From the NCBI GenBank assembly GCA_005400705.1, contig GCA_005400705.1_4079.1: 64,000 bases of DNA; one strand, given 5' to 3'. The translations under genes and the position numbers were made by a program. Under the pieces are notes generated by a model, which saw only the letters and a program-made list of their open reading frames with translations, searched no databases and was not told the origin of the DNA. Positions 1 to 54,468 of the stretch are shown piece by piece (within the stretch, counting starts at the first letter, position 1; every line of letters starts with the position of its first letter). The DNA is from Escherichia coli. Its GTDB lineage: Bacteria > Pseudomonadota > Gammaproteobacteria > Enterobacterales > Enterobacteriaceae.

Positions 1-249
1 AGTAAAATTTCTGATTATGTTGAATCTACTGATGAAAAGATCAAACGTCTATCATCTGAGCACCAAGAATTAAGAACTGTAGCAATTAATGAGTTGAATA
101 ACATTAAGATGGCGATAGATCTTGAGGTAGCAACTGATTATGAAATAGAACTGTTTCCTAAGTTGAAAGCATATGTTCTTGAGCTATCATCTCTAACAAC
201 ATCTGAATTTAGTAAGAAGAAGTTTTCGTTCCCTGTTAAACCTGTTTAA
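1..249 (+). CDS. hypothetical protein, 3' end only (gene begins upstream of window)
   Basis: Open frame from window edge to TAA at 247-249; coiled-coil-like composition. Confidence 0.4.
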   Translation, partial: SKISDYVESTDEKIKRLSSEHQELRTVAINELNNIKMAIDLEVATDYEIELFPKLKAYVLELSSLTTSEFSKKKFSFPVKPV

Positions 250-277
250 AAGTTTTTTGGAACAAAATCGTAAGTAG

Positions 278-286
278 TGATACAAT
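278..286 (+). promoter_or_regulatory. extended -10 promoter (TGaTACAAT)
   Basis: TG at 278-279, TACAAT at 281-286; upstream of small ORF and DNA polymerase. Confidence 0.4.
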
Positions 287-293
287 GTAGTCA

Positions 294-324
294 TCTCACC
301 GATTGTGGTGAGGTGACATTTTTT
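294..324 (+). terminator. hairpin plus T-tract immediately downstream of promoter -10 (terminator/attenuator)
   Basis: tctcacc-gattgt-ggtgagg stem-loop followed by TTTTTTT. Confidence 0.4.
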
Positions 325-350
325 TGAAAACACACATGGAGAAATACAAA

Positions 351-653
351 ATGGCTAAATCTAAAAAAGAAGTTAAAGTTGAAATTCGTGATCTAAACGA
401 TGAACAACGTAAACGTCTCGGTGACGCACTTAACAACATTGTTGTACAACTAACTTTCATTGATGATACCAAAGCATCCTTATCTGATTTTGTTTCTAGT
501 GTTTCTGATGAACTTGGTATCGATGCATCTGATATCAAACAAGCTGCACAACGTATGTACAAAGGTGATTACTTTGACAAACAAAATAAACTCGATAATA
601 TCGAAACTATTCTTAGTGTTACTAATAATCTTCCACAAGCAGATGATTACTAA
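351..653 (+). CDS. hypothetical small protein
   Basis: ORF with GGAG about 9 nt upstream of ATG 351; followed by terminator. Confidence 0.5.
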   Translation: MAKSKKEVKVEIRDLNDEQRKRLGDALNNIVVQLTFIDDTKASLSDFVSSVSDELGIDASDIKQAAQRMYKGDYFDKQNKLDNIETILSVTNNLPQADDY

Positions 654-675
654 TTAGTACTAAAATATATTAAAT

Positions 676-703
676 AGCCTCCAATGACGGAGGCTTTCTT
701 TTT
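676..703. terminator. rho-independent terminator
   Basis: agcctcc-aatgac-ggaggct hairpin followed by T-rich tract. Confidence 0.55.
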
Positions 704-732
704 AACTTAATAAACGTAAGGGAATACAAACG

Positions 733-3700: not shown

Positions 3701-3738
3701 GTACTGCGTCAGTAAACAATGGATTCTTCACTTGGTAA
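733..3738 (+). CDS. DNA polymerase, family B (T4 gp43-like) with 3'-5' exonuclease domain
   Basis: FFDIETD (Exo I), YSKQDS (Exo II), DFNSLYP (motif A), KILLNSLYG (motif B), YGDTDS (motif C) in 1001-aa ORF. Confidence 0.95.
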   Translation: MYIDAYMERKRTGDILHVVERKNGKRILRELEPVYEYYVESPQGTHKTVYGTMAKHFEFQTQAQMNKSVEQHKSEGLRIFESDCNITFKTLAKEYMGKGSPDLNIVFFDIETDFHKKFGYAPPSDPFNRVTAISLYQSWTGKDYVLTLPPADMEIYEAQDIVRQLNEETNDPNSTVILYTDEKEMFMEFFSLIDDSDVISGWNSEFFDIPYMINRTKKIFNEATTARWCLWNKKPNSREADNFGKTVQTYDLVGRVHLDYLALYKKHAGQVEQSYKLDYIAEKVTKENKVSYEGSLDKLYREDYITFLRYSKQDSILLKKIDAKCDYINLHNRLAHKECVLISTTMGSVALIDTAIINLAHTRGEVVFNKAPKDDLEFDPEMEYYGEDGEDEDEKISAKAAGAWVQDPVLGLVSDLGCTDFNSLYPTVLRTLGMSTECILGQLRQDYTDAYLAAKIQEQKNKSKSKSFEPDWTAAWHGLFAAVEFTMVHEKSEETLIVDLEDGSSFKATGKELYDIIFAEDSTIVLSANGTLFDKSKSGVIPDILTQWYSERKAQQKMVIDYKHMYTDGWEFNGYEKVEPLLSNYTPGTMFRTNIHDNDPVYLLRKEIGKGQWDEVAKLIVENGLVLKDGRIFCPKEEKDYFKQRSAFWKQNQQIRKILLNSLYGALLNKGSRFFDKRLGQSVTLTGRSMTKHMASRINEITTGVYNHQGGSVIYGDTDSVYFSVTHYLKEQGIPYNLSKEEIVDMYIKIGEEVGESFPSFMHEMFNTGIEKGKIVGADLEMVGSRGLFLKKKRYAILKYWEDGFRKDIDGKPGEIKAMGLEIKRSDTPKYIQNFLEETLIALLVGESEQQLKQRVREFKDVFKDMPVHEKGSPKTVKNYTNLEAEYQLTGKCKVGHVLAGIQWNRLREVYDDKSVPEVTDGTKVIVCNLKDNPMGIKAVGYPIDCVEYLPEWFLELPFDTEKMEEIVLTKKLENIFGILDMDIGIHEKSTASVNNGFFTW

Positions 3739-3749
3739 GGAGTAATAAT

Positions 3750-3899
3750 ATGGTTATTGTAAATGAAATTGAACTAAACTATGACGAAGTAAACGATACT
3801 TTCACTAATGAGATGTTGAATCTTACTGAAGAAAGTGTAAATGAGGCATGGGAAAAATATGTAGAATGGACTTCATTACAAGGTAAAAATGATGAGTAA
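3750..3899 (+). CDS. hypothetical small protein (49 aa, not in ORF track)
   Basis: AAGGAG-like RBS then ATG at 3750; stop overlaps next start. Confidence 0.3.
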   Translation: MVIVNEIELNYDEVNDTFTNEMLNLTEESVNEAWEKYVEWTSLQGKNDE

Positions 3900-4188
3900 T
3901 ATATATAAGCGTATTGGTGAAGTATTAGAAGGCAATGGTATCATTAATTCTGTACTAGCATATGATAATGATGAAGAAGTAGTTCTAATTGGTGCGGGTT
4001 TTACTCGCACTGGTTCAGTGGAAGTTGACGGAGAGATTGCTGATGTTTACACTCTTGTGAAAAAGCGTAAAGTTGTTTTTGTCGATGATGTACATACATT
4101 AAAAGACTTGAAAAAATTACGAGATAAAATTGGCATGAGTTCTACAATTGATAAGCCTTATCTTCAACGTTGGAATACAAAATACTGA
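3889..4188 (+). CDS. hypothetical protein
   Basis: 99-aa ORF, same strand, tightly packed. Confidence 0.45.
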   Translation: MMSNIYKRIGEVLEGNGIINSVLAYDNDEEVVLIGAGFTRTGSVEVDGEIADVYTLVKKRKVVFVDDVHTLKDLKKLRDKIGMSSTIDKPYLQRWNTKY

Positions 4189-4195
4189 TAAAAAA

Positions 4196-4225
4196 TTGAG
4201 ACAAGCATCATTTTTGAGATATAAT
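4196..4225 (+). promoter_or_regulatory. sigma70-like promoter (TTGAGA-18-TATAAT)
   Basis: TTGAGA 4196-4201, TATAAT 4220-4225, upstream of clamp gene. Confidence 0.4.
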
Positions 4226-4289
4226 GGTGCTTGTAGTAATCTTACATAAAAACATTTTTTGATTAACAAATAAAACGGAGAATTATATA

Positions 4290-5021
4290 ATGGATCTACG
4301 CAACGTACTACGTGACCTCGTAAACACAACCAGTGGTATTGACTTCTCTTGTATTGCAGTAAGCAGTGAAGACCGTGGTGAAGGACAACGTGTATATCTA
4401 GAAGCGTACACAGATGACCGAACTCTTGTAATGCGAGCATATACTAAAGAAGATGTTCCTGAAGTTCAGGGTCGTTTTGGCTTAGGTAATCTAGGTCTTC
4501 TTCAGGGTCTAATGTCTCTAAAAACATACAGTACCGAAGGAACCACAATCACATCAAATGTTAAAGATGGTTCAGTTAAAAGTCTGGCATTTAAATCTGA
4601 AGATGCAAGCACTACATTTATGGTACAAGCTGAAAAACTTATTCCAGTTCAACCACGTTTTCATGAACAACCATATGACGTACAGGTTATTCCTAGTGCA
4701 GCAAAAGTTCAGGAACTAAAGAGTTTTTCTGGTGTATTTAAATCTTTTAGTTCTCTTGTAACTCCGTATACTGAAGGCGACACCCTATACTTTCACGTTG
4801 GTGAGAAAAACAAAAGTAACCACGTTGGTTCTCTAGCTTTTTCTAAAACTGAAGGTGAATTAGGTCTTGGTTTTGGTTATAATATTGATCGCGTACTTCA
4901 AGCATTATCTCGCGTATCTAATGCCGAATCAGTATCACTTGGTATTACTAAAACTGGTATGCTAAATGTAACACTAGATACTGGAATTGCAGTATACAAA
5001 TTTTACGTAACAGGCTGCTAA
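4290..5021 (+). CDS. sliding clamp (T4 gp45-like)
   Basis: 243 aa; GLGNLGLLQGLMSL segment resembles the gp45 LNGFLGILSLV region as I recall it; sits near polymerase. Confidence 0.55.
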   Translation: MDLRNVLRDLVNTTSGIDFSCIAVSSEDRGEGQRVYLEAYTDDRTLVMRAYTKEDVPEVQGRFGLGNLGLLQGLMSLKTYSTEGTTITSNVKDGSVKSLAFKSEDASTTFMVQAEKLIPVQPRFHEQPYDVQVIPSAAKVQELKSFSGVFKSFSSLVTPYTEGDTLYFHVGEKNKSNHVGSLAFSKTEGELGLGFGYNIDRVLQALSRVSNAESVSLGITKTGMLNVTLDTGIAVYKFYVTGC

Positions 5022-5029
5022 TATAAATA
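5022..5029 (+). promoter_or_regulatory. TATAAATA late-promoter-like motif
   Basis: Exact TATAAATA followed by ggggaaca/tgttcccc hairpin (5032-5050). Confidence 0.3.
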
Positions 5030-5085
5030 ACGGGGAACACTATGTTCCCCAAATTAGTTTGATTTAAAAAGTAAAGGAATACAAA

Positions 5086-5292
5086 ATGCCATTATATACA
5101 TATCGTTGTGAAAAAGAAGAATGCAAACATAGCATGGAAAAAATTGTTAAAATTGCAAATCGTGATGAACCTCATGATTGTCCTAAATGTAATGGTGAAA
5201 AAACTATGAAGTTGGAAGTGTTCACTCCAGGTGATAAGGGTGCTAATCTTTATTTCCGTGGAAAATGGTTTGCAAATACTGGAGGTTACTGA
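5086..5292 (+). CDS. zinc-ribbon protein (FmdB-like)
   Basis: MPLYTYRCEKEEC...CPKCNG: two CxxC pairs in 68 aa. Confidence 0.5.
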   Translation: MPLYTYRCEKEECKHSMEKIVKIANRDEPHDCPKCNGEKTMKLEVFTPGDKGANLYFRGKWFANTGGY

Positions 5293-5293
5293 T

Positions 5294-5593
5294 ATGAAAA
5301 TTAAAATGATTAATGATTACGTTCTTGTTCGACAAATTGAAGCACAGAATAAAAGTACTGGTGGTATTATTCTAGGTAATGTTGAACCACCATGTATTGG
5401 GATGGTAATTTCCGTTGGTCCAGGTAAAATTCTTCCGAACGGACAACTTGCAGAACATAATATTAAAGAAGGTGATATGGTTGTGTTTGGTCGTTCATCT
5501 TTGAACACACCACTGACTGAAGATCTTGGTGGCGGTGAAGATACATATTATGTAATGAAAATCGAAGAGATTTTTGGTAAGAAAAATGGCTAA
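5294..5593 (+). CDS. GroES/Cpn10-like co-chaperonin
   Basis: KSTGGIILG mobile-loop-like motif, VISVGPGKILPNG, GDMVVF; GGAGG RBS 8 nt upstream. Confidence 0.75.
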   Translation: MKIKMINDYVLVRQIEAQNKSTGGIILGNVEPPCIGMVISVGPGKILPNGQLAEHNIKEGDMVVFGRSSLNTPLTEDLGGGEDTYYVMKIEEIFGKKNG

Positions 5594-6311
5594 AAAGAAA
5601 TTTATTCCATTTTGGATGGTCCCTGCTCACTGGGGACTTTCTGGAAAGGCAAAAGAGATAGCTAAAGCATACTACTACAATGATGATTATGAAGCTGATA
5701 TGAAAGTTGCTGAATTGACATATCTAACTCCATATGAAGTTGAAGTGGCCCAATTGGATATTAAAAAGAAATATAGCGTAATTGGAGATTTGGAATATCT
5801 AATTGCTGCACTTGATGTTGAACTAAAATATTCTAAAATTACTCGTGAACAGTATGATGTTAAAGTTCTTGATGCAAAACTAAGTATTGGAGTTATTACA
5901 GAAAAAGAATATGATATGGAAATCATTGAGTTAATGCCAGAAGGTGATGAAAAAAGGCTTAAGGCTATTGAATTTGCATATCGTTACGATGAAATCACAC
6001 AAAGTGAATATTCTAAGGAAATATACACACTTCGTAAAGAACCTTGGATTGATTTGGATGTTGTTCTTGATCCTGAAACTAATGAAGTTGAGTTTGTATT
6101 TGACTATAATGAATATTTCTGGAAAAAGTTGAAAGCTGAAGGTCATCCAGGAAATGATGAAGAAGAAATTATCGATAACTTTGTGAGAGACTTGGGGCGT
6201 AAACTTGCTACGGATGATTTCAGTGATGATTACGACACAAAGCTGGTGAGTGCGAACGAAGGATTAGACAAGCTACCTGGTTTGCCTGAAGGATTTCGTT
6301 CATATAGATAA
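5586..6311 (+). CDS. hypothetical protein with repeated ITxxEY (SHOCT-like) motifs
   Basis: KITREQYDVK / VITEKEYDME / EITQSEYSKE repeats; start overlaps GroES stop. Confidence 0.5.
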   Translation: MAKKKFIPFWMVPAHWGLSGKAKEIAKAYYYNDDYEADMKVAELTYLTPYEVEVAQLDIKKKYSVIGDLEYLIAALDVELKYSKITREQYDVKVLDAKLSIGVITEKEYDMEIIELMPEGDEKRLKAIEFAYRYDEITQSEYSKEIYTLRKEPWIDLDVVLDPETNEVEFVFDYNEYFWKKLKAEGHPGNDEEEIIDNFVRDLGRKLATDDFSDDYDTKLVSANEGLDKLPGLPEGFRSYR

Positions 6312-6323
6312 CATATAAAAAAA

Positions 6324-6350
6324 GGAGAGCAAATGCTCTCCTTTTCTTTT
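6324..6350. terminator. bidirectional rho-independent terminator between convergent genes
   Basis: ggagagc-aaat-gctctcc hairpin flanked by A-tract and T-tract. Confidence 0.6.
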
Positions 6351-6358
6351 GAAAAATA

Positions 6359-7048
6359 TTAAACCAATGCTGGGATGTATTGGAAAAGTTTAACACCGAA
6401 ATCACCTGCTGCATCAGCAGATTGGGAACGTAGGTAAACTTCGGTAACACCATCTTTAGCAAGTAGTGGAACACCAGTTAGATCATCAATTAGTAGACGG
6501 CCTTCTTCGGATTCAGTACTTGGTACACCTTGTGGTGATTTAAGATCTTTGTTAAAGACACCCGCACGTTCAACTAGGAAGGTAACAACAGAAGCATCAG
6601 CAATACTAACTGAACCTGCACTCAATACACCATCAGGTGCGTTGGTGAAACCAGTAACTGGAAATACTTCAAGACCATTACCTGCGATGTTAGAGGTAGC
6701 GATGATAACCGCACGTTGTTGAACAACATCGACAATACGTTTAACGTTAGTTTGTGCTGCATAAGATGCATTGTAATCAGCTTCTAGTGTGCCAAGAACA
6801 AATGCAGTTCCATCAATACGTTTGATACCTTTATCATTTAGATATGCTAGAATTTCTTCTGGAATATCAGTGTTTAGAAAACGTTGTAGACCAGCATAAG
6901 AAGAAACTGCACCAGTAACTAGAACGTTTACGTCTCCTAGCTTACTGATAGCAATGGATGCTAGGGCGTTAGTGCCACAAAAGTAACCTAGAATACGTTC
7001 AAAGGAATAACCATTGATACGTTCAAAAGAAGTATTAGTATATGACAT
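6359..7048 (-). CDS. hypothetical protein, paralog of 7063..7662 (possible late/structural)
   Basis: 229 aa, A/G/V/T-rich; AGGAGG RBS; shares QQRAV...VTFLVERAGVFNK block with neighbour. Confidence 0.6.
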   Translation of the reverse strand: MSYTNTSFERINGYSFERILGYFCGTNALASIAISKLGDVNVLVTGAVSSYAGLQRFLNTDIPEEILAYLNDKGIKRIDGTAFVLGTLEADYNASYAAQTNVKRIVDVVQQRAVIIATSNIAGNGLEVFPVTGFTNAPDGVLSAGSVSIADASVVTFLVERAGVFNKDLKSPQGVPSTESEEGRLLIDDLTGVPLLAKDGVTEVYLRSQSADAAGDFGVKLFQYIPALV

Positions 7049-7062
7049 AATCTATCCTCCTA

Positions 7063-7662
7063 TTATAGTTGAACAGGAAGAGCAGCACGTACTTTAATTG
7101 CTACAGCAGTAGATGCACCTGCATCACCAACACCATCAGTACCTTGACTTACGAAAGTTTTGGTACGGAAAACTTTAGCTTGAGCGATAGACTTAGCTAG
7201 GTCAACAGTTGGATCAACTGGAGCAGGACATGCTGAACCAGGACGAACTTCTTGCTTGTTAAATACGTCTTGACGTTCACAGATGAAAGTCAATGCAACA
7301 GAATTAGCACCACCTGCTACATCAGCACCACTAGTGCCGAACGCAACTACGTTTGGATTAGCATTTTTGAAATCAGCAGGAATAACAACTTCTGAATCAA
7401 GAGCTAGTAGAGAGGTAGTAACTAGAACTGCACGTTGTTGTAGTAGTTGGGTAACCATGAATAGGTTATATTGAGCATTACTTAGAGCAGTTTGATACGC
7501 TTCAGCTTGAACATCAGAACCGTCAGAAGTAACTTTGGTAGTACCTAGTTCAACATCAGTTGGTAGATCGATTACGATGGTAACGAAACCGTTATTACCA
7601 CCCCACCATTCGCGAGCAACGCTAGACATACCATAGTTACGGTTAAAAGAATTAAGACTCAT
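7063..7662 (-). CDS. hypothetical protein, paralog of 6359..7048 (possible late/structural)
   Basis: 199 aa; AAGGAG RBS; QQRAVLVTTS...LTFICERQDVFNK aligned with neighbour. Confidence 0.6.
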   Translation of the reverse strand: MSLNSFNRNYGMSSVAREWWGGNNGFVTIVIDLPTDVELGTTKVTSDGSDVQAEAYQTALSNAQYNLFMVTQLLQQRAVLVTTSLLALDSEVVIPADFKNANPNVVAFGTSGADVAGGANSVALTFICERQDVFNKQEVRPGSACPAPVDPTVDLAKSIAQAKVFRTKTFVSQGTDGVGDAGASTAVAIKVRAALPVQL

Positions 7663-7803
7663 GAAAATCTCCTTGTCAAATTTTGTGCAGGTATATCCTG
7701 CTTAAAGTTATTTATCAAAAAATATCACTAGCATTTAAATTTACTGAGATATTTAATGAATTTCTATGATATTATTTATCAAATCTGGGAAAGTGATTCA
7801 AGA

Positions 7804-7814
7804 TGTGCTATAAT
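7804..7814 (+). promoter_or_regulatory. extended -10 promoter (TGcTATAAT)
   Basis: gtgctataat; followed by caatga-aaa-tcattg palindrome at 7819-7833. Confidence 0.45.
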
Positions 7815-7823
7815 TATCAATGA

Positions 7824-13081
<5,258 letters not shown>

Positions 13082-13207: not shown

Positions 13208-14260
13208 ATGAAATCTCTAGCTGAAATTCGTGCACACCTAAAAGCAGAACAAGAAAAAGCAGAAGCTCAAAAGAATGGTACATTTACTGGCGAGCGTAAA
13301 GCTGATTCGTTCTTAGCTTTCTGGAACGTACCTTATAACGAACCACTAAACCTACGTTTTCTACCAGATGCAGATGAGTCTAACCCATTCTTCTGGCGTG
13401 AACGTGACATGATTAACCTAACTTTCAATGGTGTAGTCGGTATGCACACTGATAAAGTTACCGTTCAAGTACCTTGTAACGAAATGTGGGTTCCTAAATC
13501 CTGTCCGGTTCTGAAAGAAGTACGTCAATGGTTCCAAAGTGCGAATGAAACAGGGAACGAAGAACTAAAAGCAATGGCTGGTCGTTACTGGAAGAAGAAA
13601 ACCTATCTAATGCAATGTTTTATTGCTCCTGATAGCGTTGCAGTAAAAGACGACATTGCACCAGAAAATCCAATTCGTCGTATTCTGGCTAACAAAGATA
13701 TCTTTGATAAAGTTAAATCCATCCTGCTAAACCCAGGCATCAAAGAGTCTCCAACTCACTACGTTCAAGGTCGTGATTTTGGTATTGTTAAAACTAAGAA
13801 TGGTGGTGGTTATAATAGCTACGACATGTCTCAATTCTCCATGTCTGAGCGTCCACTAAACGAAGAAGAACTAGCAGCAATTGAAAAATATGGCCTATAC
13901 AATCTAAATGATTTTATGCCAAAACAACCAACTCCAGAAGAGTTGAAAGCAATTGAAGAAATGTTCGAAGCATCAGTAAATGGTGAAGCATATGATCCAG
14001 CACGTTGGGCATTTGCATATCGTCCAGCAGGTGTACCAAAACCTAACTCTGGAACTGTTACTGAATCAAAACCAACTCCTGCTCCAGTACAACAAGAGTC
14101 AGCACCTGCACCAGTAGCACCTACTGCTCCAGTTACACCAGCCCAACAAGCTGCTCCAGTAACTCCAGTCGCTACCCCAGCAGCAACCACTCCTGAAGCA
14201 CCAAAAGAACAACTATCTGCATCTGCACTAGTTGCTCGTTTGAAACAACAAGGTAAGTAA
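13208..14260 (+). CDS. single-stranded DNA-binding protein (T4 gp32-like)
   Basis: His/Cys cluster (MHTDKV...VPCNEMWVPKSCP) consistent with gp32 Zn site; Pro/Ala-rich C-terminal tail. Confidence 0.75.
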   Translation: MKSLAEIRAHLKAEQEKAEAQKNGTFTGERKADSFLAFWNVPYNEPLNLRFLPDADESNPFFWRERDMINLTFNGVVGMHTDKVTVQVPCNEMWVPKSCPVLKEVRQWFQSANETGNEELKAMAGRYWKKKTYLMQCFIAPDSVAVKDDIAPENPIRRILANKDIFDKVKSILLNPGIKESPTHYVQGRDFGIVKTKNGGGYNSYDMSQFSMSERPLNEEELAAIEKYGLYNLNDFMPKQPTPEELKAIEEMFEASVNGEAYDPARWAFAYRPAGVPKPNSGTVTESKPTPAPVQQESAPAPVAPTAPVTPAQQAAPVTPVATPAATTPEAPKEQLSASALVARLKQQGK

Positions 14261-15956: not shown

Positions 15957-16775
15957 ATGACAAAATTAAATGAGTTTTTATCAAATGTAGCAGTTCTAGA
16001 TACTGAAACTACTGGGGTTGAGAGTGAAGATGATATTATTGAATTTAGTATCTCGTATCCACATACTTCACATGAAAACATTGATACTATTGATAACTAT
16101 ACATTGAGATACAAACCCTTGAAAGATATTCCACCAGAGGCATCTGCTGTGCACTTTATCAGTACTGAGGATGTAGCTAATTGTGTTGGGTATAAAGATG
16201 ATTTAGATAACATTGATGCACTTATGGGCTGCCGTAAGTATTTTGTTGGTCATAATGTACAATTTGACCGTAGAATGATGGTAGATAACGAATATAAATA
16301 TCGTAACTCAATTTCACAGTACTTACTTGATGAAAATAAATGGATTTGTACCCTTCGTCTTGCTAAGAAAATGTTCGCAGAAGATATTGAATTTAAAAAC
16401 TTAACTCTAAGTTATTTGTGGTATAAGTTTGGATGTTATCGTGATGTTCATCGACCTGTTAATGCACACGCAGCAAAAGACGATGTGTTTATGTGTTATC
16501 AGGTTCTAATCAAATTAGTTGAAATTGCAATCGAACGTGGATATATCGAACCTAATGGTGATATTGGTGAGCAAATTGTAACTTTCTGCAACACACCAAT
16601 GCGTTATCAATTCATGCCATTTGGTAAACACAAAGGTGAGCCAATGAGTACAGTTCCATTGAATTACATTGAATGGATGATTACTAATAGTGACATTTTA
16701 GATGCAAGTAACCCTAACTGTGATAAAGATTTAGTATATACATTTGAGTACGAATATAATACTCGAACTAATTAA
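15957..16775 (+). CDS. DEDDh 3'-5' exonuclease (DnaQ/ExoX-like) with C-terminal FGKHKG domain
   Basis: Exo I VLDTETTG, Exo II VGHNVQFD, Exo III HAAKDD; C-terminal FGKHKGEP...YIEWM. Confidence 0.7.
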   Translation: MTKLNEFLSNVAVLDTETTGVESEDDIIEFSISYPHTSHENIDTIDNYTLRYKPLKDIPPEASAVHFISTEDVANCVGYKDDLDNIDALMGCRKYFVGHNVQFDRRMMVDNEYKYRNSISQYLLDENKWICTLRLAKKMFAEDIEFKNLTLSYLWYKFGCYRDVHRPVNAHAAKDDVFMCYQVLIKLVEIAIERGYIEPNGDIGEQIVTFCNTPMRYQFMPFGKHKGEPMSTVPLNYIEWMITNSDILDASNPNCDKDLVYTFEYEYNTRTN

Positions 16776-20807: not shown

Positions 20808-21133
20808 ATGGAAAAAGTATATATAATAAAATACCAGAAGGGTATGTACCTGTACCTAAAGAACAAAAATCAAAACAAATATCTCTACTTAGACAAGGAT
20901 CTATTACTGAAATAACTTTAGATGGTAAAACATTTCAAGTTCATGATCCTGCTCGTATTGAAAAAATTATTTCTTTGGTAGAAAGACACGAAGAACGATT
21001 TTTCAGTTTAAGTCAAGAGTTGGCAAAGACAAAACAAAATTGTAGACTATTAGAGAATCAAATATCAACTTTGACTAATACAGTTAAACAGTTACAGGAG
21101 CAAATAAAAAATGCAGGATTCGACCGATTCTAA
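20804..21133 (+). CDS. hypothetical coiled-coil protein
   Basis: 109 aa, heptad-like C-terminus. Confidence 0.4.
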   Translation: MNGKSIYNKIPEGYVPVPKEQKSKQISLLRQGSITEITLDGKTFQVHDPARIEKIISLVERHEERFFSLSQELAKTKQNCRLLENQISTLTNTVKQLQEQIKNAGFDRF

Positions 21134-21749
21134 ACATTATAGAAAAGCCCGAACTGATATTGACATTGACTTCAAGGATAGTAAAAGCGTAATTGCAAAA
21201 CTTCCTTGCGTGCGAAGTACTGAAAAAATTACGGAGGATGGTTTAATCCCCCATAATAGTGGTGTTCATTTTGATAATATACCAATTGATCCAATAACCG
21301 GATTGGCAAGTATACAATATAAAGAAGCTGAAAGTCTAGGATATCAAAAAGTTGATATTCTTTCACAGTCAGCTTACATGTATGTTCGTGATAGAGAGCA
21401 TTTAAAAGAACTAATGAATCAGGAACCAAATTGGGATCTATTATTAGAACCGGAAATTGTAGAACATCTTTCGCAAATTAAAAAACATGTAACTTTATTA
21501 AATGTATGGAAACCTAAATCCATAGACGAACTTGCAATGTTTATTGCAATGATACGCCCTGGAAAAAGGCAGTGCCAAAGTATGAACACATGGGACGAAG
21601 TTAAAGCCACCATATGGGATTATAGTACTATCGGCACTGACCAAGCAGGAAATAAATTACGATATTTCAAAAAGCCACATGCTTATGCATATAGCTTAAT
21701 GATTGTTGTACAACTAAATGCTTTAGTTGAACATCTTACTTCTTCTTAA
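21111..21749 (+). CDS. DnaE (Pol III alpha) core-like fragment, palm/fingers segment without catalytic Asp region
   Basis: GYQKVDILSQ (cf. GLVKFDFLGL), AMFIAMIRPGK (cf. IALVALFRPGP), FKKPHAYAYSL (cf. FNKSHSAAYAL), colinear. Confidence 0.5.
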   Translation: MQDSTDSKHYRKARTDIDIDFKDSKSVIAKLPCVRSTEKITEDGLIPHNSGVHFDNIPIDPITGLASIQYKEAESLGYQKVDILSQSAYMYVRDREHLKELMNQEPNWDLLLEPEIVEHLSQIKKHVTLLNVWKPKSIDELAMFIAMIRPGKRQCQSMNTWDEVKATIWDYSTIGTDQAGNKLRYFKKPHAYAYSLMIVVQLNALVEHLTSS

Positions 21750-22089
21750 GAGCCACATTACGACGCTTGATGCGTTTTTGTGGCAAATTGCTTAAAGAAA
21801 CTACTGGACCACATACGAAATTCACCGACGGTGTATCGAATCTCTGTGTGTACGGTTCAAATTTCTCCATCTCTTCTTGAAAGAATAGACAAACTGGAAT
21901 GGTTCTATTACTTTGCCACCACCAATCGTGTGCTATACCTAACAATTCGTCTTGCATTGAATCATCCATATCATCGAAACAGTAAAGAGTTGTATACTGT
22001 TTGCTTTTGATTTTGATGATACCAACAAACGTTTTACCATCATACTGGATTACAGTAATGAATGGTGGAATAGTGTTATATTGATTCAT
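21736..22089 (-). CDS. hypothetical protein (lone minus-strand gene)
   Basis: 117-aa ORF convergent with upstream gene; TATAAAT-like motif upstream on minus strand. Confidence 0.4.
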   Translation of the reverse strand: MNQYNTIPPFITVIQYDGKTFVGIIKIKSKQYTTLYCFDDMDDSMQDELLGIAHDWWWQSNRTIPVCLFFQEEMEKFEPYTQRFDTPSVNFVCGPVVSLSNLPQKRIKRRNVALKKK

Positions 22090-23179: not shown

Positions 23180-24235
23180 ATGAACGCTGTACAAAACATA
23201 ATGGCACAAATTATGAATGATCCAGTACCTGCGATTGGTACATGGTCACGACACAACTGTCCAGCTTGTGTGTTCAGAGGACATTCAAGGCCGGATACAA
23301 AGCACCGTGGTAATCATATGTTCAATGCAGATGGTTCCGTTTCATATAACTGCTTTAACTGTAGTTTAAAAACTGGTTGGCAACCAGGAAAATATATGAG
23401 CAAAGATATGGAGTCTTTGCTCATTTCTTTTGGTGCACAAGATAAAGAAATAGAATTAGTTAAGTTTTATATTAAAGAAATGGTTGACAGCGGTGATTTT
23501 GCTGCACAAGAAACTGTTGCATCAAAATTGTATGACCGAGTAACAGTACGTGATTTGCCATCAAATGCAAAAACATTTTGGGAATGGGCTTCTTTACCTG
23601 AAGATAAAATTCCACAAGAATTTATAAGTGTTTTGCATAATGTCAATGAAAGAAACCCATATCTGTTAGACTTAGAATTATATTGGTCACCTAATAAAGA
23701 ACATAAAATGTATGACAGATTTATTATTCCATATTTCATGAATGGTAAAATTATTGGTTATACTGCACGACATAAATTAAAAGATCCTGGAAGTACATAC
23801 AGGTTCATAAATCAAGTAAGTACTAATATACTATATAACTATGATTTATTAAAAGATGAACGAATAAAAACAATTTTAGTATGTGAGGGTCCGTTAGACG
23901 CAGCATTAATGGGTGGTGTATCTGCTAATAACTTTAAATTATCAAACGTACAGATTGATGTATTAAAAGATGCACAGCAAAAAGGTAAAAAAATAGTTAT
24001 TGTTCCAGATAGAGATAAAGATGGATTAATAACTATAGATCAAGCACTTGAAAATGGATTCAGTGTTTCCTTCCCAGACTTTGGTGCTGTAAGAGAAGGT
24101 AGTACAATACGTCATATCAAGGACTTTGAAGAAGCTTGTGCACGATTTGGTAGGTTATTTTGTTTACAATTAATACATGATAGTATAGTAGATGAGCCAT
24201 TTTATATTAAAGCTCAAACGGATAAATGGATGTAA
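23180..24235 (+). CDS. DNA primase (T4 gp61-like; zinc ribbon + Toprim)
   Basis: CPACVF...CFNCS zinc ribbon; VCEGPLDA and IVIVPDRDKDG Toprim motifs. Confidence 0.8.
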   Translation: MNAVQNIMAQIMNDPVPAIGTWSRHNCPACVFRGHSRPDTKHRGNHMFNADGSVSYNCFNCSLKTGWQPGKYMSKDMESLLISFGAQDKEIELVKFYIKEMVDSGDFAAQETVASKLYDRVTVRDLPSNAKTFWEWASLPEDKIPQEFISVLHNVNERNPYLLDLELYWSPNKEHKMYDRFIIPYFMNGKIIGYTARHKLKDPGSTYRFINQVSTNILYNYDLLKDERIKTILVCEGPLDAALMGGVSANNFKLSNVQIDVLKDAQQKGKKIVIVPDRDKDGLITIDQALENGFSVSFPDFGAVREGSTIRHIKDFEEACARFGRLFCLQLIHDSIVDEPFYIKAQTDKWM

Positions 24236-24257: not shown

Positions 24258-25778
24258 ATGATTCAAAGCACAGTGGATGTGAAACAATATGGGATTAATG
24301 CACAACAATACTTATTATCTCAGATTTTCAGTAATCCTGATTTATATGTACGTTGTAAAAATATCCTTAAACCAGAATATTTTGATAAAACATTTCATGA
24401 AAGTATTCAATACGTGCATGATTATGCTGCAAAATATAGTTCATCACCTACTTTAAAAGATATTGAAGTTAAAGGTGGTTATCAATACGATCAATATGAA
24501 GTTCAAGAATTACATAAACAATCAGTACTTGATACATGTGGTGAATTTTGTCGCCATAAAGCATTAGCTTTAGCCGTTGAAAAAGGAATGGAACTTGTCC
24601 ATCAGAAAAAATATGGTGGAATCGAAGAACTAATCCGAGAAGCAATGTTGGTAACGGTACAGAATGAGTTAGGTTTGGATATTTTTGAAAACCCTGAAGA
24701 TACAATCCGCTCACTCAGTACAATGCAAGGGTCATTTAAGAGTGGTTGGGAAACTCTTGATTACAAACTTTTCGGTGGATTTGGGCGTAGAGAGTTAGAG
24801 ATCTTTGCTGCTGCATCAGGTGGTGGTAAATCAGTAGTACTGCAAAATTTAGCAGTTAACTTTGCGAAAGCTGGTATGAATGGTGCATACATTTCACTTG
24901 AACTAGCTGAAGAGTTGGTTGCTGTTCGTATCTATGGTATGATGACTGAATCAAAACTCAGTAACGTAAAAAATGAAGCTGAAAAGATTGGATTTGCTGT
25001 TAAAGTTGAAGGTAAAAACAGTGGTATGTTGCGTATTAAACGCTTACCTGAATCTGTAACAACCACTGACGATATTGAAAGTTATCTACGTGAATTACAA
25101 ATTAAGATGGAAATCAAACTTGATTATGTATGCGTGGACTATTTGGATCTATTAACTTCTAATCGTCTTGGACCAAATGATAAATCCAATACATTTACTA
25201 AAGATAAGTTTGTATCAGAAGAATTACGTGCACTTGCAACCAAAATGGATTTAACTGTTTTCACTGCATCTCAGTTTAACCGTAGTGGTATGGACGAAGA
25301 TAAGAAAAGTCAAAGTCAGATTGCTGGTGGTATTTCGAAAATTTATACTGCTGATAACGTAATTTATATTGAGGCACGAAAAGAAACTGGCGAACTATGG
25401 TTTGATTTCCAAAAAACACGTAACAGTAGTGCAGTAGGTTCCCGTTTGCGTATGTCATATGATATTGATTCATTGAGAGTTCTTGACCACGCAACTACAG
25501 TACAACAAATGGAAACCGAAGGTAATGGATTCCGTCACAGCGGTGTTTCTAAGATTGGTGGAGGGAATATGGCGTTACCACCCAGCACTATGCAAACATT
25601 ACGTCATACGCTTTCTGGTGCAGCTAAATCACCATCTGTGCAACCTGACAATACAGTAACACTAAATACTGATAGTGCTCCTAACTCTACGACACAAAAC
25701 GAAATACAGAATCCACAGACACATGCTGGTACTGATCGTGTTCATGCAATGAAGCAATGGTTAAATCAAAGGAAATGA
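24258..25778 (+). CDS. replicative DNA helicase (DnaB family, T4 gp41-like)
   Basis: Walker A AAASGGGKSV; Walker B DYVCVDYLD; SQFNRSG motif. Confidence 0.85.
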   Translation: MIQSTVDVKQYGINAQQYLLSQIFSNPDLYVRCKNILKPEYFDKTFHESIQYVHDYAAKYSSSPTLKDIEVKGGYQYDQYEVQELHKQSVLDTCGEFCRHKALALAVEKGMELVHQKKYGGIEELIREAMLVTVQNELGLDIFENPEDTIRSLSTMQGSFKSGWETLDYKLFGGFGRRELEIFAAASGGGKSVVLQNLAVNFAKAGMNGAYISLELAEELVAVRIYGMMTESKLSNVKNEAEKIGFAVKVEGKNSGMLRIKRLPESVTTTDDIESYLRELQIKMEIKLDYVCVDYLDLLTSNRLGPNDKSNTFTKDKFVSEELRALATKMDLTVFTASQFNRSGMDEDKKSQSQIAGGISKIYTADNVIYIEARKETGELWFDFQKTRNSSAVGSRLRMSYDIDSLRVLDHATTVQQMETEGNGFRHSGVSKIGGGNMALPPSTMQTLRHTLSGAAKSPSVQPDNTVTLNTDSAPNSTTQNEIQNPQTHAGTDRVHAMKQWLNQRK

Positions 25779-31486: not shown

Positions 31487-33805
31487 ATGATTAACGTAAC
31501 CAAGCGTAATGGAATGAAAGAGCCGTTATCATTGGATAAGATCCATCAAATTTTATTTTTCGCTGCTGAAGGGTTAAGTGGTATTTCCGTTTCTGAAATT
31601 GAAATCCGTGCACAGCTTCAGTTTTATGAAGGTATTGAAACCAGTACTATTCATGATATTCTAATAAAAGCAGCAGCAGAACTTATTTCTGAAGATACGC
31701 CTAACTATCAATACGTTGCTGGAAGATTATTAAACTATAGTATTCGTAAGCAAGTATATGGACAGTATGACCCAATTAAGTATACTGCTCATCTTCAAGA
31801 AATGGTAGATACTAAAATATATGATCCTGAAATTTTGGAGAAATATACTCTTCAAGAAATTGAAGAGCTTGGACGTTACATCAAACATAAACGTGATGAT
31901 AAATTCACTTATGTTGCTATGCGTCAGTGGGAAGGAAAGTATCTATATAAGAATCGCGTAACTAAGAAAATCTACGAAACTCCACAAATGGCATATATGA
32001 CCATTGCAGCAATCATCTTTATGGAGTATGATCGCTCTGTACGTATGTCTTATGTTAAGAAGTTTTATGATGCTGTTAGTAACTTTGATATCAGTCTCCC
32101 GACTCCTATCATGGCTGGTCTACGTACCAATACACGTCAGTTTAGTTCTTGTGTAGTACTAAACGTTGGAGATAGTCTAGATAGTATTGGTTCTTCTAAC
32201 CACGCTATACTACGTTATATTTCCCGTAAAGCTGGACTTGGTATCAATATGGGCCGCATTCGTGCTCTGGACTCCGAGATTCGTTCAGGTGATGCAGTAC
32301 ACACTGGTTTGATTCCTTTCATTGCATCAACTGCTAAGACCGTTAAAAGCTGCTCTCAAGGTGGTGTACGTGGTGGTGCAGCAACAGTCCACTTCCCATT
32401 GTGGCATTTGGAATTTGACAATCTTGTAGTACTGAAAAATAACAAAGGTACTGAGTTCAACCGTGTTCGACAACTTGACTATTGTTTCCAAGTGAACAAA
32501 ACACTATATCAACGTTTAGTGGATGGCAAGAATATTACATTCTTTAGTCCTAATGAAGTTCCTGGGCTATATGAAGCATTCTGTTCTAACCTAAAAGAAT
32601 TTGAAAAGCTGTACAAGAAGTATGAAGCTGATCCAAGCATTCGTAAAAAATCTGTATCTGCTGTTGAAGTATTCAGTACTCTAATGACTGAGCGTGCAGA
32701 AACTGGTCGTATCTATATTCAAAACATTGACCATGCAAACACACACTCAACCTTTATTGAATCAATTGCACCAATTGAACAATCCAACTTGTGTCAAGAA
32801 ATCGCACTACCATCTGTGCCATTTGATGATATTAATACTGGCGAAGGTTTGATTAGTCTATGTACTTTGAGTGCAATCAACTGGGGTAACTTTGACCGCC
32901 CAGAAGATATGGAAACTGCTTGTGATCTTTCTGTACGTGCTCTTGATTCTCTATTGGATTATCAAGACTACCCAGTAGTTCATGCTGACCGTGCAACTAA
33001 AATGTATCGCCCATTAGGTGTTGGTATCATTAACTTTGCATACTTCCTTGCTAAACGTGGTTTACGTTATAATGAAGCAGCATTAGAAACAGTTAACGAG
33101 TGGGCTGAAGCATGGTCTTACTATCTAATTAAATCTTCTGTACAGCTTGCTAAAGAGAAAGGTAAGTGTGAAGGTTTTGACACACTAAAATATGCTAAAG
33201 GTATTCTACCAATTGATACCTATAAAGAAGATATTGATGCGTTGGTATCTCCTGAACTAAAACAAGATTGGGAAACATTGCGTCAGGATATCAAACAATA
33301 TGGTATTCGTAACGCAACAACTATGGCACTGATGCCAGCAGAAACTAGTGCACAAATCAGTAACAGTACTAATGGTATTGAGAAACCTCGTTCACTTGTA
33401 ACTAAGAAACTATCTAAAGATGGTATTCTTAAACAAGTCGTTCCTGAAATCAATAAGTTGAAAAACAAATATGATTTACTATGGGATCAGAAAGATAACA
33501 TCGGTTATCTACAAATCTGTGGTGTTCTTCAGAAATACATTGACCAAAGTATTAGTGTGAATACCAGTTACAATCCAGCACACTTCCCTGATGGTAAGTT
33601 GCCAATGTCAACACTACTAACTGAACTAATGTATGCATACAAAGTTGGTTTGAAAAATCTGTATTATCATAATACTAATGATGGTTCTGATGAAGTGGAT
33701 GTTGAGAAAGTACTAAAAGAAGCTGCAAAACCAGAATCAGGACAGTTTGTGTTGCCTACACTACCTGACTTAGATGAAGGTGATTGTGATAGTTGTAAGA
33801 TCTAA
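31487..33805 (+). CDS. nrdA: ribonucleotide reductase class Ia large subunit
   Basis: N-terminal ATP-cone (VTKRNGMKEPLSLDKI), active-site CSQGGVRGG region, C-terminal CDSCKI. Confidence 0.9.
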   Translation: MINVTKRNGMKEPLSLDKIHQILFFAAEGLSGISVSEIEIRAQLQFYEGIETSTIHDILIKAAAELISEDTPNYQYVAGRLLNYSIRKQVYGQYDPIKYTAHLQEMVDTKIYDPEILEKYTLQEIEELGRYIKHKRDDKFTYVAMRQWEGKYLYKNRVTKKIYETPQMAYMTIAAIIFMEYDRSVRMSYVKKFYDAVSNFDISLPTPIMAGLRTNTRQFSSCVVLNVGDSLDSIGSSNHAILRYISRKAGLGINMGRIRALDSEIRSGDAVHTGLIPFIASTAKTVKSCSQGGVRGGAATVHFPLWHLEFDNLVVLKNNKGTEFNRVRQLDYCFQVNKTLYQRLVDGKNITFFSPNEVPGLYEAFCSNLKEFEKLYKKYEADPSIRKKSVSAVEVFSTLMTERAETGRIYIQNIDHANTHSTFIESIAPIEQSNLCQEIALPSVPFDDINTGEGLISLCTLSAINWGNFDRPEDMETACDLSVRALDSLLDYQDYPVVHADRATKMYRPLGVGIINFAYFLAKRGLRYNEAALETVNEWAEAWSYYLIKSSVQLAKEKGKCEGFDTLKYAKGILPIDTYKEDIDALVSPELKQDWETLRQDIKQYGIRNATTMALMPAETSAQISNSTNGIEKPRSLVTKKLSKDGILKQVVPEINKLKNKYDLLWDQKDNIGYLQICGVLQKYIDQSISVNTSYNPAHFPDGKLPMSTLLTELMYAYKVGLKNLYYHNTNDGSDEVDVEKVLKEAAKPESGQFVLPTLPDLDEGDCDSCKI

Positions 33806-33850: not shown

Positions 33851-34624
33851 ATGAAAGTTGACTATCGTAGTCCAATAGATATTGGATTCATAGAAGAATT
33901 TTGGGATGATCTTGATATGGATATGATTGTTCGCTATCAAAAACTCCCACAAGACTTTATAAAAAAACATTTTGATAAAATGAACCCTAATATGTTAGTT
34001 CGATATCAAACAATGTCAACTGATTTTCTTAAAGAAAAGTGGGAGTGGTTTGATAAAAATGTTATTGCACAATATGTAGTCATGCCAATGGAATTGATTA
34101 TGGAAAAATGGAATGACTTCAAAGATAACTTTCTTGATACTGTTGCTAAGTATCAAAAACTAACACAAGATTTTATTCAAGACAAATGGAATGACTTTGT
34201 TGAATTTAGAGATGGTGTAATGTCGGAAATTTCCAGATATCAAAAACTAACACTTGATTTCATTAAAGATAAATGGGATTATATTGATAAGAACTATATT
34301 TCATATTACCAAACTTTAACGGTTGATTTTATCAAAGATAATATTACTGAATTAAATGTTGCAGCAGTATCAGCATTTCAAATACTATCGGATGATATAC
34401 GCTCATTGATGGGATTAGAAGCACCAGCAAAAACTATTACTGGTAATCAAATACTCGCGTTGGACCCATGTGCCGATGGTATGGCTCGATACAATGCTCA
34501 TACACCTGACAATAATAAAGTTTTGACATGGAATGAACTACTTACACTACACTTGGGTTCACAAGAAGGAATTAGTGATATCCATTGGCTATCATATAAA
34601 TTGGGTCATAAAATTAATACATAA
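33851..34624 (+). CDS. tandem-repeat protein (about seven 24-aa xRYQxLxxDFIKxKW units)
   Basis: Repeats IVRYQKLPQDFIKKHF / VRYQTMSTDFLKEKW / AKYQKLTQDFIQDKW / ISRYQKLTLDFIKDKW / YYQTLTVDFIKD. Confidence 0.55.
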   Translation: MKVDYRSPIDIGFIEEFWDDLDMDMIVRYQKLPQDFIKKHFDKMNPNMLVRYQTMSTDFLKEKWEWFDKNVIAQYVVMPMELIMEKWNDFKDNFLDTVAKYQKLTQDFIQDKWNDFVEFRDGVMSEISRYQKLTLDFIKDKWDYIDKNYISYYQTLTVDFIKDNITELNVAAVSAFQILSDDIRSLMGLEAPAKTITGNQILALDPCADGMARYNAHTPDNNKVLTWNELLTLHLGSQEGISDIHWLSYKLGHKINT

Positions 34625-34636
34625 AGGAATATATAT

Positions 34637-35761
34637 ATGTCAGTTTTCAAAATTAATGAGAAGTCTCACCTAGAAAAGAATATGTTTTTTGATGAAAGTG
34701 TTGATATCCAACGCTTTGAAAGTAACAAATACTCTACACTTGAAAAACTAACAGAACAACAGAAAAGTTTCTTCTGGACACCAGGTGAAGTTGACGTATC
34801 TAAAGATAAAATTGATTTTGCTAACCTCAATGATTCTGAGAAGCATATCTTTACATCAAACTTAAAACGTCAAATCCTTCTTGATTCAGTTCAAGGTCGT
34901 GGTCCTAACCTAATGCTACTACCATATGCATCTCTACCTGAACTTGAAAACTTTATTGAAACATGGGCGTTCTTTGAAGGTGCTATTCATAGTAAATCAT
35001 ATACACATATTATTCGTAACATTTATCCTAATCCATCTGAAGTTTTTGATACTATGTTGGACATTCCAGAAATCACTGATTGTGCTGCTGATGTTTCAAA
35101 ATACTATGATGACCTTGATGAACTCGGAACATTGTATCGTGCATTGGGTGAAGGCACTCATACTGTTAATGGTAAAACTATTGAAATTAATATGTATGAC
35201 CTAAAGAAAAAACTATGGTTATGTTTGAATAGTATTAACATTCTTGAAGGTGTTCGTTTCTATGCTAGTTTTGCTTGTTCATGGGCATTTGCAGAGAACA
35301 ACCTCATGGAAGGTAATGCAAAGATTATCCGTCTAATTTGTCGTGATGAAAACCTTCATCTAGCAGCAACACAAATGATTTTACGTCTTCTAAAGAAAGA
35401 AGATCCAGATATGGTAAAAATTGCCGAAGAGTGCTATGATGAAGTACTGGAAATGTTTATGTCTGCTATTCGACAAGAAGAAGCCTGGGCAGATTTCCTC
35501 TTTAAAGATGGTTCTATTATTGGATTGAACTCTGAAATTCTTAAACAGTATGTCCGCTGGATTGGTTCTAAGCGTATGACGGCACTTGGTATCAAATGTC
35601 CATATACTGTATCCAAGAGTAACCCACTACCGTGGACTGAACACTGGGTAAGTGGTAGTTCTGTACAGGTAGCACCACAAGAAACTGAAATCAGTTCTTA
35701 TATTATTGGTGGTATTGTGAATGATATCCAAGTAGATACATTCACACCATTCAAACTATAA
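34637..35761 (+). CDS. nrdB: ribonucleotide reductase small subunit
   Basis: Ferritin-like ExxH pairs (EGAIHSKSYTHII; RDENLHL); follows nrdA. Confidence 0.85.
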   Translation: MSVFKINEKSHLEKNMFFDESVDIQRFESNKYSTLEKLTEQQKSFFWTPGEVDVSKDKIDFANLNDSEKHIFTSNLKRQILLDSVQGRGPNLMLLPYASLPELENFIETWAFFEGAIHSKSYTHIIRNIYPNPSEVFDTMLDIPEITDCAADVSKYYDDLDELGTLYRALGEGTHTVNGKTIEINMYDLKKKLWLCLNSINILEGVRFYASFACSWAFAENNLMEGNAKIIRLICRDENLHLAATQMILRLLKKEDPDMVKIAEECYDEVLEMFMSAIRQEEAWADFLFKDGSIIGLNSEILKQYVRWIGSKRMTALGIKCPYTVSKSNPLPWTEHWVSGSSVQVAPQETEISSYIIGGIVNDIQVDTFTPFKL

Positions 35762-50145: not shown

Positions 50146-50153
50146 TATAAATA
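50146..50153 (+). promoter_or_regulatory. T4-type late promoter motif TATAAATA
   Basis: Exact TATAAATA about 40 nt upstream of ATG 50192. Confidence 0.4.
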
Positions 50154-52586: not shown

Positions 52587-52898
52587 ATGTTTAATCCGTT
52601 TTTTGACCCGTCTGGAATGACGGAAAAAGAACTACAGTTAAAAATTAATGAACAGTCTATGCGTTTAACTTCTGCTCGTGCTGCTGGCCTAAGCGACATG
52701 ATTATTGGTAATATGCAAACTGTCTTAAATCAATGTTATGCTGAACTAGAACTTCGCCAAGGACAAAAAGAAAAAACTGTTTATGACGAAGAAGACCCAT
52801 GTATCTTCGATATGGATTCATATCTAACTGACAACGAAGAGGCCCAGAAGAAGAAAAATGAAAGTACAAGGAAACAGATTTATAAGTCCCAATGGTGA
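52587..52898 (+). CDS. hypothetical protein
   Basis: 103-aa ORF overlapping next ORF by 41 nt. Confidence 0.35.
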   Translation: MFNPFFDPSGMTEKELQLKINEQSMRLTSARAAGLSDMIIGNMQTVLNQCYAELELRQGQKEKTVYDEEDPCIFDMDSYLTDNEEAQKKKNESTRKQIYKSQW

Positions 52899-54445: not shown

Positions 54446-54468
54446 CACGTACACATAAGGAAATACAA

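Follow-up and report, generated by a model that had tools for sequence, protein, structure and literature searches.

The window studied here, a 64,000-nucleotide stretch of DNA from an Escherichia coli assembly (GCA_005400705.1, contig GCA_005400705.1_4079.1), carries two short open reading frames (ORFs), 21111..21749 and 52858..53376, and we consider it likely that they together code for a minimal C-family (Pol III alpha/DnaE-like) nucleotidyltransferase of two subunits, an accessory polymerase beside a family B DNA polymerase (PolB). Over the 6 kb around the first ORF, identity is 99.7% with Escherichia phage 121Q and about 99% with some 20 more records of close relatives, and the window is assigned on this basis to a 121Q-type jumbo phage (Asteriusvirus, Rak2-like; 121Q ~350 kb). 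The first ORF runs from ATG to TAA and its 212-residue product is 100% identical to 121Q gp16; the product of the second is 99.4% identical to 121Q gp56, and the two genes are 31.7 kb apart. RefSeq labels both proteins 'DNA polymerase', and so do the PHROGs families that they match (phrog_11778 for gp16, E 5e-108; phrog_11127 for gp56, E 4e-87). In the proposed enzyme, gp56 (N-half) would supply the first part of a Pol-beta-like palm, including the GRGS loop (the contact site for the incoming dNTP in DnaE), and gp16 (C-half) would supply the catalytic triad D16/D18/D82, K80 and cut-down fingers (RPGK, KxHAxAY). Each half would be translated from its own start codon, and the two would associate non-covalently, without inteins, rebuilding a single active site.

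Two consecutive parts of one catalytic module

We examined the catalytic half with HMMER and hhalign against Pol III alpha of E. coli, M. tuberculosis and Taq. The motifs GYQKVDILSQ (aa 77-86, nt 21339..21368), AMFIAMIRPGK (aa 142-152, nt 21534..21566) and FKKPHAYAYSL (aa 186-196, nt 21666..21698), from which a first-pass annotation had proposed a DnaE-like fragment, are collinear with DnaE LVKFDFLG, ALFRPGP and FNKSHSAAY, and the family profile of gp16 matches Pol III alpha, so that the DnaE-like assignment stands. The presence and order of the three motifs were thus read correctly. Their 'correct spacing' holds only loosely, since cellular DnaE has much longer gaps: D18 and D82 are separated by 64 residues versus 152 in E. 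coli and 153 in Taq, D82 and R149 by 67 versus ~85 in E. coli, and R149 and K188 by 39 versus ~118. Past the KPHAYAYSL motif, 16 residues remain. The fingers family PF17657 scores 13.5 bits on gp16 over 34 residues, versus a cut-off of 22, and about 80 residues of the cellular fingers are absent. A search of the PDB sequences with gp16 as a single sequence returned nothing beyond noise (a dynein chain, E 0.16); a family profile is required.

The same annotation had stated that no catalytic Asp triad is present, a claim that the alignments contradict. The N-terminus of gp16, KARTDIDIDFKDSK, contains TDIDIDF at aa 15-21. In hhalign against E. coli K-12 DnaE, T15-D16-I-D18-I-D20-F falls on P400-D401-F-D403-V-D405-F, and HMMER against Taq places T15-D16-I-D18 on P462-D463-I-D465 and D82 on D618, the M. 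tuberculosis PDIDxDF being aligned likewise. K80 and D82 fall on E. coli K553 and D555 in the alignment of C-halves. The hhalign of the C-half family alone with the single E. coli DnaE sequence is weak (probability 3%, E 0.013) and was used for residue mapping only, in which it agrees with HMMER. In the gp16 family alignment (22 members, down to 43% identity), D16, D18, D20, K80, D82, R149, P150, K152, K187, H190 and Y194 are invariant. The triad of D16, D18 and D82, aligned with D401/D403/D555 of E. coli and D463/D465/D618 of Taq, is therefore found in the ORF and conserved. The earlier description as a palm/fingers segment was right in calling it DnaE-like, but not in taking it for a catalytically empty piece, as all three catalytic aspartates lie there. 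We conclude that gp16 is the predicted catalytic half, comprising the part of the palm that binds metal, together with reduced fingers. This half is often labelled 'hypothetical protein' or 'putative membrane protein' (GAP32, CBB GenBank, pEa_SNUABM_50, Muenster, 7t3); such labels on gp16-type ORFs, despite the catalytic triad, are an annotation error in propagation.

The DnaE-like nature proposed for the partner ORF 52858..53376 was borne out by PF07733 (DNA_pol3_alpha), which gp56 passes with 38 bits versus a gathering score of 23.9 (E 2e-9). The first ~90 residues of gp56 matched no Pfam family. Its GLGRGSS motif (aa 137-143) aligns with the GPGRGSxAGS loop of DnaE, and in the alignment of the N-half family (24 members) G139-R-G-S-S143 is invariant and the C-terminus is fixed. 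gp56 corresponds to the first palm part with the GRGS NTP-binding loop, and its end, ...NEFLKW, is equivalent to DnaE ...FERFLN. AlphaFold2 models were built for each half on its own, with a mean predicted local distance difference test score (pLDDT) of 92 for gp16 and 87 for gp56. The best 13 Foldseek matches of the gp16 model are all Pol III alpha, with template modelling scores (TM-scores) up to 0.51, and the best 14 fold matches of gp56 are all DnaE/PolC; the E-values of the latter are weak, which is normal for half a domain. At the site of the cellular thumb, between D18 and D82, the gp16 model shows a helix and a beta-hairpin (strands 34-41 and 44-53).

The first-pass annotation had also suggested that the two ORFs belong together, and we found that they align as consecutive parts of one polymerase module. 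When gp56 was concatenated with gp16 in this order, the PF07733 match crossed the junction (residues 92-197, profile 16-112, 45 bits); with gp16 placed before gp56 it did not. A paired-half profile, built from 12 same-genome pairs, matched only Pol III alpha in the PDB, the best being Taq 3e0d/2hpi (E 4e-9), and the Taq alignment is unbroken over the junction, running from ...GPGRGSAAGS...FERFLN on the side of the N-half to PERVSMPDIDTDF... on the side of the C-half. The hhalign of the joined halves with E. coli DnaE gave 93% probability and E 3e-7 over residues 323-406. A concatenated query aligned with unpaired homologues of the halves misplaced the C-halves and was discarded. The N-half family ends in ...EF[LF][KR] followed by 0-3 residues in nearly all of its 24 members, two having longer tails, the C-half has 0-15 residues ahead of DIDID, and the break point is the same in Rak2-like, PA5oct, RsoM2USA, CM1 and Xoo-sp13 phages. 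By these alignments the split is placed directly before the metal-binding (PDxDxDF) strand of the palm. As the GRGS loop is on gp56 and the Asp triad on gp16, the active site would be composite. Of what defines the C-family catalytic module, the halves together show the Asp triad, the GRGS/PF07733 segment and the palm-plus-fingers fold, without the features of a full-length DnaE: PHP domain, thumb, clamp-binding/helix-hairpin-helix (HhH) region, OB domain, tau-binding C-terminus and a single polypeptide. Neither half gave a match to PHP (PF02811), and among the ORFs scanned there was no further DnaE-like ORF and no beta-clamp-binding/HhH, OB-fold or tau-binding region.

Natural single-chain forms, which are rare and metagenomic, were found with an exhaustive C-half profile search of 1.84 billion representatives. 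The protein P0306 (375 aa) reads ...GVGRGSSSAS...KLNIKEFIK-DNKEGIYNIA-DFDIDTKNRE..., that is, an N-half, a ten-residue linker and a C-half; two further fusions from other samples (P0390 and P0391) are 78-81% identical to it. The order in these proteins, N-half, short linker (~4-10 residues) and C-half, is the one that DnaE predicts, and P0306 gives a stronger PF07733 match across the junction (E 5e-16). The fusion of locus L008 (P0391, 78% identical to P0306) matches the window halves over residues 10-180 (E 2e-21) and 179-375 (E 6e-32). Downstream of its gene lie a convergent 119-aa ORF and a 315-aa ORF, homologues of window gp17 and gp18, and the gene therefore holds the syntenic slot of the C-half. 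In two other loci, L009 and L010, a cytosine DNA methylase gene (PF00145) lies directly ahead of the fused gene and overlaps it. A second, divergent fusion, P0382 (336 aa), has DYDIE in place of DIDID; its start overlaps the stop of the gene for a 552-aa protein that has a helix-turn-helix and a PF03090 'Replicase' domain (L011 1516..4181, on a 7992-bp contig of JGI metagenome 3300080032), a context that looks like a plasmid or small-phage replication module and not like a jumbo phage. In a neighbour-joining tree, which is rough, without support values and indicative only, the two fused types stand apart, each amid stand-alone C-halves, a placement that favours secondary fusion.

We also considered whether the halves are joined after expression by a split intein or by RNA trans-splicing, as the split-intein DnaE of cyanobacteria offers a precedent and the relative MIJ3 has a split intein in its PolB. 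This is very improbable here. The 0-3 and 0-15 residues at the junction leave no room for a ~100-aa N-intein or a ~35-aa C-intein, no conserved Cys/Ser/Thr nucleophile is found there, and the linker of the natural fusions is short. Each ORF has, moreover, its own start, stop and purine-rich upstream region for ribosome binding. Each of them also starts within the preceding ORF (overlaps of 23 nt and 41 nt), and the halves are therefore probably co-transcribed with upstream genes. Scans for sigma-70 promoters and terminators around both genes showed no excess of sites over shuffled sequence, and a T4-late-like TATAAATA motif was found near neither gene, the nearest being at 50146.

Selection and distribution among phages

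Both halves are under strong purifying selection. Compared with phage TH47, the ratio of nonsynonymous to synonymous substitution rates (dN/dS) is 0.043 for gp16 (dS 0.77) and 0.014 for gp56, for which dS is near saturation. The profile search returned 550 C-half relatives; 340 reach E<=1e-10, and the complete ones are almost all ~185-215 aa long. In the families of both halves the catalytic and substrate-binding residues are invariant down to ~32-43% identity. The gp16 ORF is intact and conserved, and from these data it is probably functional. Decaying, non-functional remnants of an acquired and broken dnaE, kept by chance, might be suspected from the combined length of 384 aa versus 1160 aa for E. 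coli DnaE and from the C-half alone being below the Pfam thresholds; the 2017 CBB genome paper, which only noticed the 172-aa piece, likewise called it a truncated alpha subunit. A dN/dS of 0.04 and 0.01, the invariant catalytic and substrate-binding residues, at least 340 diverged clusters of the same length, and a break point and neighbours kept in very distant jumbo phages speak against such decay, and the selection and conservation data effectively refute it, leaving it next to no probability. Of the earlier suggestion of a 'fragmented and dispersed' DnaE gene, the layout is right, but decay is not, given the strong purifying selection and the constant break point in divergent jumbo phages.

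Both halves occur together in ~95 phage genomes, and their counts are equal in each host genus (Escherichia 34, Pseudomonas 11, Salmonella 8, Erwinia 8, Xanthomonas 4, Yersinia 4). One extra Klebsiella record has a C-half, which the 85.7-kb partial record phiKp_21 would explain. Every phage record in which both halves were located has them as separate genes (6 genomes were mapped in detail), and the distance between them is 31-34 kb in Rak2-like phages, ~44 kb in PA5oct-like phages, ~182 kb in Atu_ph07, ~14 kb in CM1 and Xoo-sp13 and 4.2 kb in RsoM2USA. The N-half of Xoo-sp13 lies in an unannotated gap (record ~144113..144337). The order N-half, GroES-like gene and clamp loader is kept in the window, PA5oct, RsoM2USA, CM1 and Xoo-sp13 (loci L002, L003, L004 and L005), and remains constant while the distance to the C-half shifts from 4 kb to 44 kb. 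A gp57 homologue, a small ORF that separates the N-half from the GroES-like gene, was detected only in the window and PA5oct. On the side of the C-half, the order C-half, gp17-like ORF, structural protein, primase and helicase is common to the window and PA5oct.

With the halves 31 kb apart and each in its own conserved neighbourhood, they might be taken for independent proteins, the N-half for example a nucleotide-binding regulator that acts with the clamp loader, and the C-half a factor that binds DNA near the primase. We hold this for improbable: with GRGS in one half and the Asp triad in the other, each lacks part of the active site, the two are found together genome by genome, fusions in the canonical order appear in two distant parts of the C-half tree, and invariant catalytic aspartates are unexpected in a non-catalytic protein. 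For the composite active site, the co-occurrence in the same genera and the natural fusions, the first-pass alternative of 'two independently retained domains' is unlikely too. An origin of the two fragments from different donors, which had been raised at the same time, is unsupported, each half retaining its own neighbourhood from Rak2-like to PA5oct-like and XacN1-like phages.

Gene neighbours and predicted role

The positions of the two halves, of their motifs and of the surrounding genes are given in Table 1.

Table 1. Polymerase halves, motifs, neighbouring genes in the window and fused genes in metagenomic loci.
Feature	Position	Strand	Details
PolB, full-length family B, 1001 aa	733..3738	+	PF03104 E 4e-23; PF00136 E 1e-21; phrog_262 E 7e-220
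gp32-type single-stranded DNA-binding protein (SSB)	13208..14260		
Stand-alone DnaQ/epsilon-like 3'-5' exonuclease (121Q gp9)	15957..16775	+	PF00929 RNase_T E 7e-15; phrog_192 E 3e-61
Predicted C-half (catalytic) of split minimal Pol III alpha-like polymerase	21111..21749	+	212 aa; 121Q gp16; phrog_11778
Codons D16-I-D18-I-D20	21156..21170	+	D16/D18 = E. coli D401/D403, metal-binding aspartates
Codons K80-V-D82	21348..21356	+	D82 = E. coli D555/Taq D618, third catalytic Asp; K80 = K553
Fingers-type motifs IRPGK (R149, P150, K152) and KKPHAYAY (K187, H190, Y194)	21534..21698	+	invariant columns
Convergent ORF, 117 aa (gp17, phrog_11637)	21736..22089	-	no Pfam match; overlaps 3' end of C-half by 14 nt
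DNA primase	23180..24235	+	phrog_47 E 1e-31
gp41-like helicase	24258..25778	+	121Q annotation
nrdA	31487..33805		
257-aa ORF between nrdA and nrdB	33851..34624	+	phrog_3532; no Pfam domain
nrdB	34637..35761		
Predicted N-half of the same polymerase	52858..53376	+	172 aa; 121Q gp56; phrog_11127
GLGRGSS motif, aa 137-143 of gp56	53266..53286	+	aligns with DnaE GPGRGSxAGS loop
GroES-like gene	53793..54119	+	downstream neighbour of N-half
gp44/RFC-like clamp loader	54433..55422	+	phrog_168 E 1e-78; Pfam DNA_pol3_delta2/AAA
Fused genes, 375-376 aa	L008 519..1649; L009 1827..2957; L010 1292..2422		metagenomic contigs, low GC (26-27%)

The PolB of the window has exonuclease and polymerase domains, and its homologue in CBB was described as gp43-like. 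Since this PolB is complete, the split enzyme would be a second polymerase and not the sole one. For the same reason its most likely role would be that of an accessory DNA polymerase of the replisome, working on one strand, in gap filling or in repair; templated DNA polymerase activity and a replisome role are what we infer. The stand-alone DnaQ-like exonuclease, whose family phrog_192 is labelled 'DNA polymerase exonuclease subunit', has an orthologue in PA5oct (E 7e-34), and epsilon-like genes are annotated in Xoo-sp13 and RsoM2USA. It is possibly a proofreading partner of the split polymerase. A convergent gp17-like ORF pairs with the C-half also in PA5oct (E 5e-20) and CM1 (E 3e-4), and stands beside the fusion in L008 (E 3e-8); this ORF may be functionally linked to the polymerase. 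The C-half tails of PA5oct (L003 2939..3541; ...EPDPFKLFS) and of P0107 (...QTPLFEL...) may resemble short clamp-binding peptides. The gp16 of the window ends in ...VEHLTSS, without a tail of this kind.

An active nucleotidyltransferase need not be a replicative or repair polymerase, and template-independent tailing, primer processing, DNA modification or a function against host defence might be envisaged instead. In favour of this, the enzyme lacks the thumb, clamp-binding and OB domains that processive replication needs, a PolB is present, the fused gene of L009 and L010 adjoins a DNA methylase, and the Pol-beta-like superfamily is rich in nucleotidyltransferases that are not polymerases. 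Against this, the fingers motifs specific to the C family (RPG, KxHAxAY) are invariant, the structural neighbours are DnaE and PolC only, the neighbouring genes code for a clamp loader, a primase and a helicase, and the second fused lineage overlaps a Rep/primase-type 'Replicase' gene. On this evidence we judge such a function unlikely.

Several points weigh against a two-subunit accessory polymerase made of gp56 and gp16. Alone, gp16 stays under the gathering score of every Pfam family, and together with the modest TM-scores (<=0.51) this means that the enzyme, as modelled, is highly derived. Our literature searches for biochemical, proteomic or transcript data on either protein gave nothing usable, and in the PA5oct record neither half is flagged as detected by electrospray ionisation tandem mass spectrometry (ESI-MS/MS), most flags being on proteins annotated as structural. 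The enzyme has no thumb, clamp-binding region or PHP domain (epsilon-binding in E. coli), and processive synthesis and a partnership with the exonuclease would therefore need new interfaces. Finally, the phage already possesses a complete PolB that includes its own exonuclease domain.

It is possible, and rather doubtful, that the split polymerase, the DnaQ-like exonuclease and the clamp loader form a dedicated second polymerase assembly beside PolB. Such an assembly would mean a two-polymerase replisome, with one enzyme per strand or with a dedicated gap-filling or repair polymerase, in which the separate production of the subunits would be part of its building or regulation. The rare re-fused forms (P0306 clade, P0382) would then be a tractable single-chain minimal C-family polymerase for studies of its origin.

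Two observations concern the window at large. Its position 1 lies ~7.8 kb ahead of the start of the 121Q GenBank record, with the PolB gene included in 1..7829, and it therefore crosses what in that record is the arbitrary start or the terminal region. Between nrdA and nrdB, where 121Q has only a 55-bp spacer, the window carries a 257-aa ORF that 8 of 34 related phage records also have and that is ~98.8% identical to copies in phages otherwise only ~83% identical to the window. No nuclease domain was identified in this ORF; its distribution is the behaviour of a putatively mobile, homing-endonuclease-like ORF.

Comparison with known systems

The split minimal Pol III alpha is already known (2021) and annotated (RefSeq, PHROGs). 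Iyer, Anantharaman, Krishnan, Burroughs & Aravind 2021 (Viruses 13:63, PMC7824862) described from sequence analysis a phage-specific form of it in 'group 2.2' jumbo phages, in which distant genes code for an N-terminal protein that binds NTP and a C-terminal protein that binds Mg and template, alongside PolB. According to the passages of that paper on the system, the remaining Pol III domains are absent from these phages, the enzyme may work together with PolB on one strand or serve in repair, and the minimal form is proposed as a model of the ancestral enzyme. As far as these passages describe it, the system of the window is the same: both halves, PolB, a gp32-type SSB and an RFC-like clamp loader are all here. 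They do not mention the fusions, the residue-level break point, the convergent gp17-like ORF, the order of N-half, GroES-like gene and clamp loader, or the possible DnaQ-like link. Relative to these passages, the mapping of the break point to residues, the selection test, the single-chain relatives and the conserved neighbours are possible small additions. The 'DNA polymerase III' of the PaBG paper refers to the beta and gamma subunits and is not relevant here.

Cellular Pol III alpha (E. coli DnaE; Taq 2hpi/3e0d; M. tuberculosis DnaE1 5lew/7pu7) and PolC (3f2b) are the only significant structural neighbours. The split enzyme has in common with cellular Pol III alpha the Pol-beta-like palm, the GRGS loop, the D401/D403/D555 triad, K553 and the order of FRPGP and FNKSHSAAY. 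Unlike cellular DnaE, it consists of two polypeptides with 384 aa in all, in place of one chain of ~1160 aa; the thumb insert is largely gone, ~80 residues fewer separate RPG from KSH, and the PHP, clamp-binding/HhH, OB and tau-binding parts are absent. The main replicases of bacteria are C-family polymerases, to which those of archaea and eukaryotes are unrelated. The two-subunit catalytic core of 384 residues would be the smallest natural C-family form known, and it raises the question of the reason for a strongly selected second, bacterial-type polymerase in a phage with a complete PolB.

Other polymerases are also made in pieces. The intein-split DnaE of cyanobacteria (Ssp/Npu) is likewise a dnaE-type polymerase coded by two distant genes; its halves bear split-intein halves and are ligated into one chain. 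In contrast, no intein is accommodated in the jumbo phage enzyme, the split is inside the palm before the DxD strand, and a heterodimer would be expected. Among phages, the split gp43 PolB of some T4-like phages and the intein-split PolB of MIJ3 and PA5oct are polymerases in pieces that belong to family B, and the split multisubunit RNA polymerases of phiKZ-like jumbo phages (PMC7598289) belong to the double-psi beta-barrel family. Essential polymerases whose separately coded pieces have to assemble are frequent in large phages. The pieces of those phage polymerases are mostly coded by adjacent genes, whereas the halves of the minimal Pol III alpha lie 31 kb apart here and 4 to 182 kb apart elsewhere.

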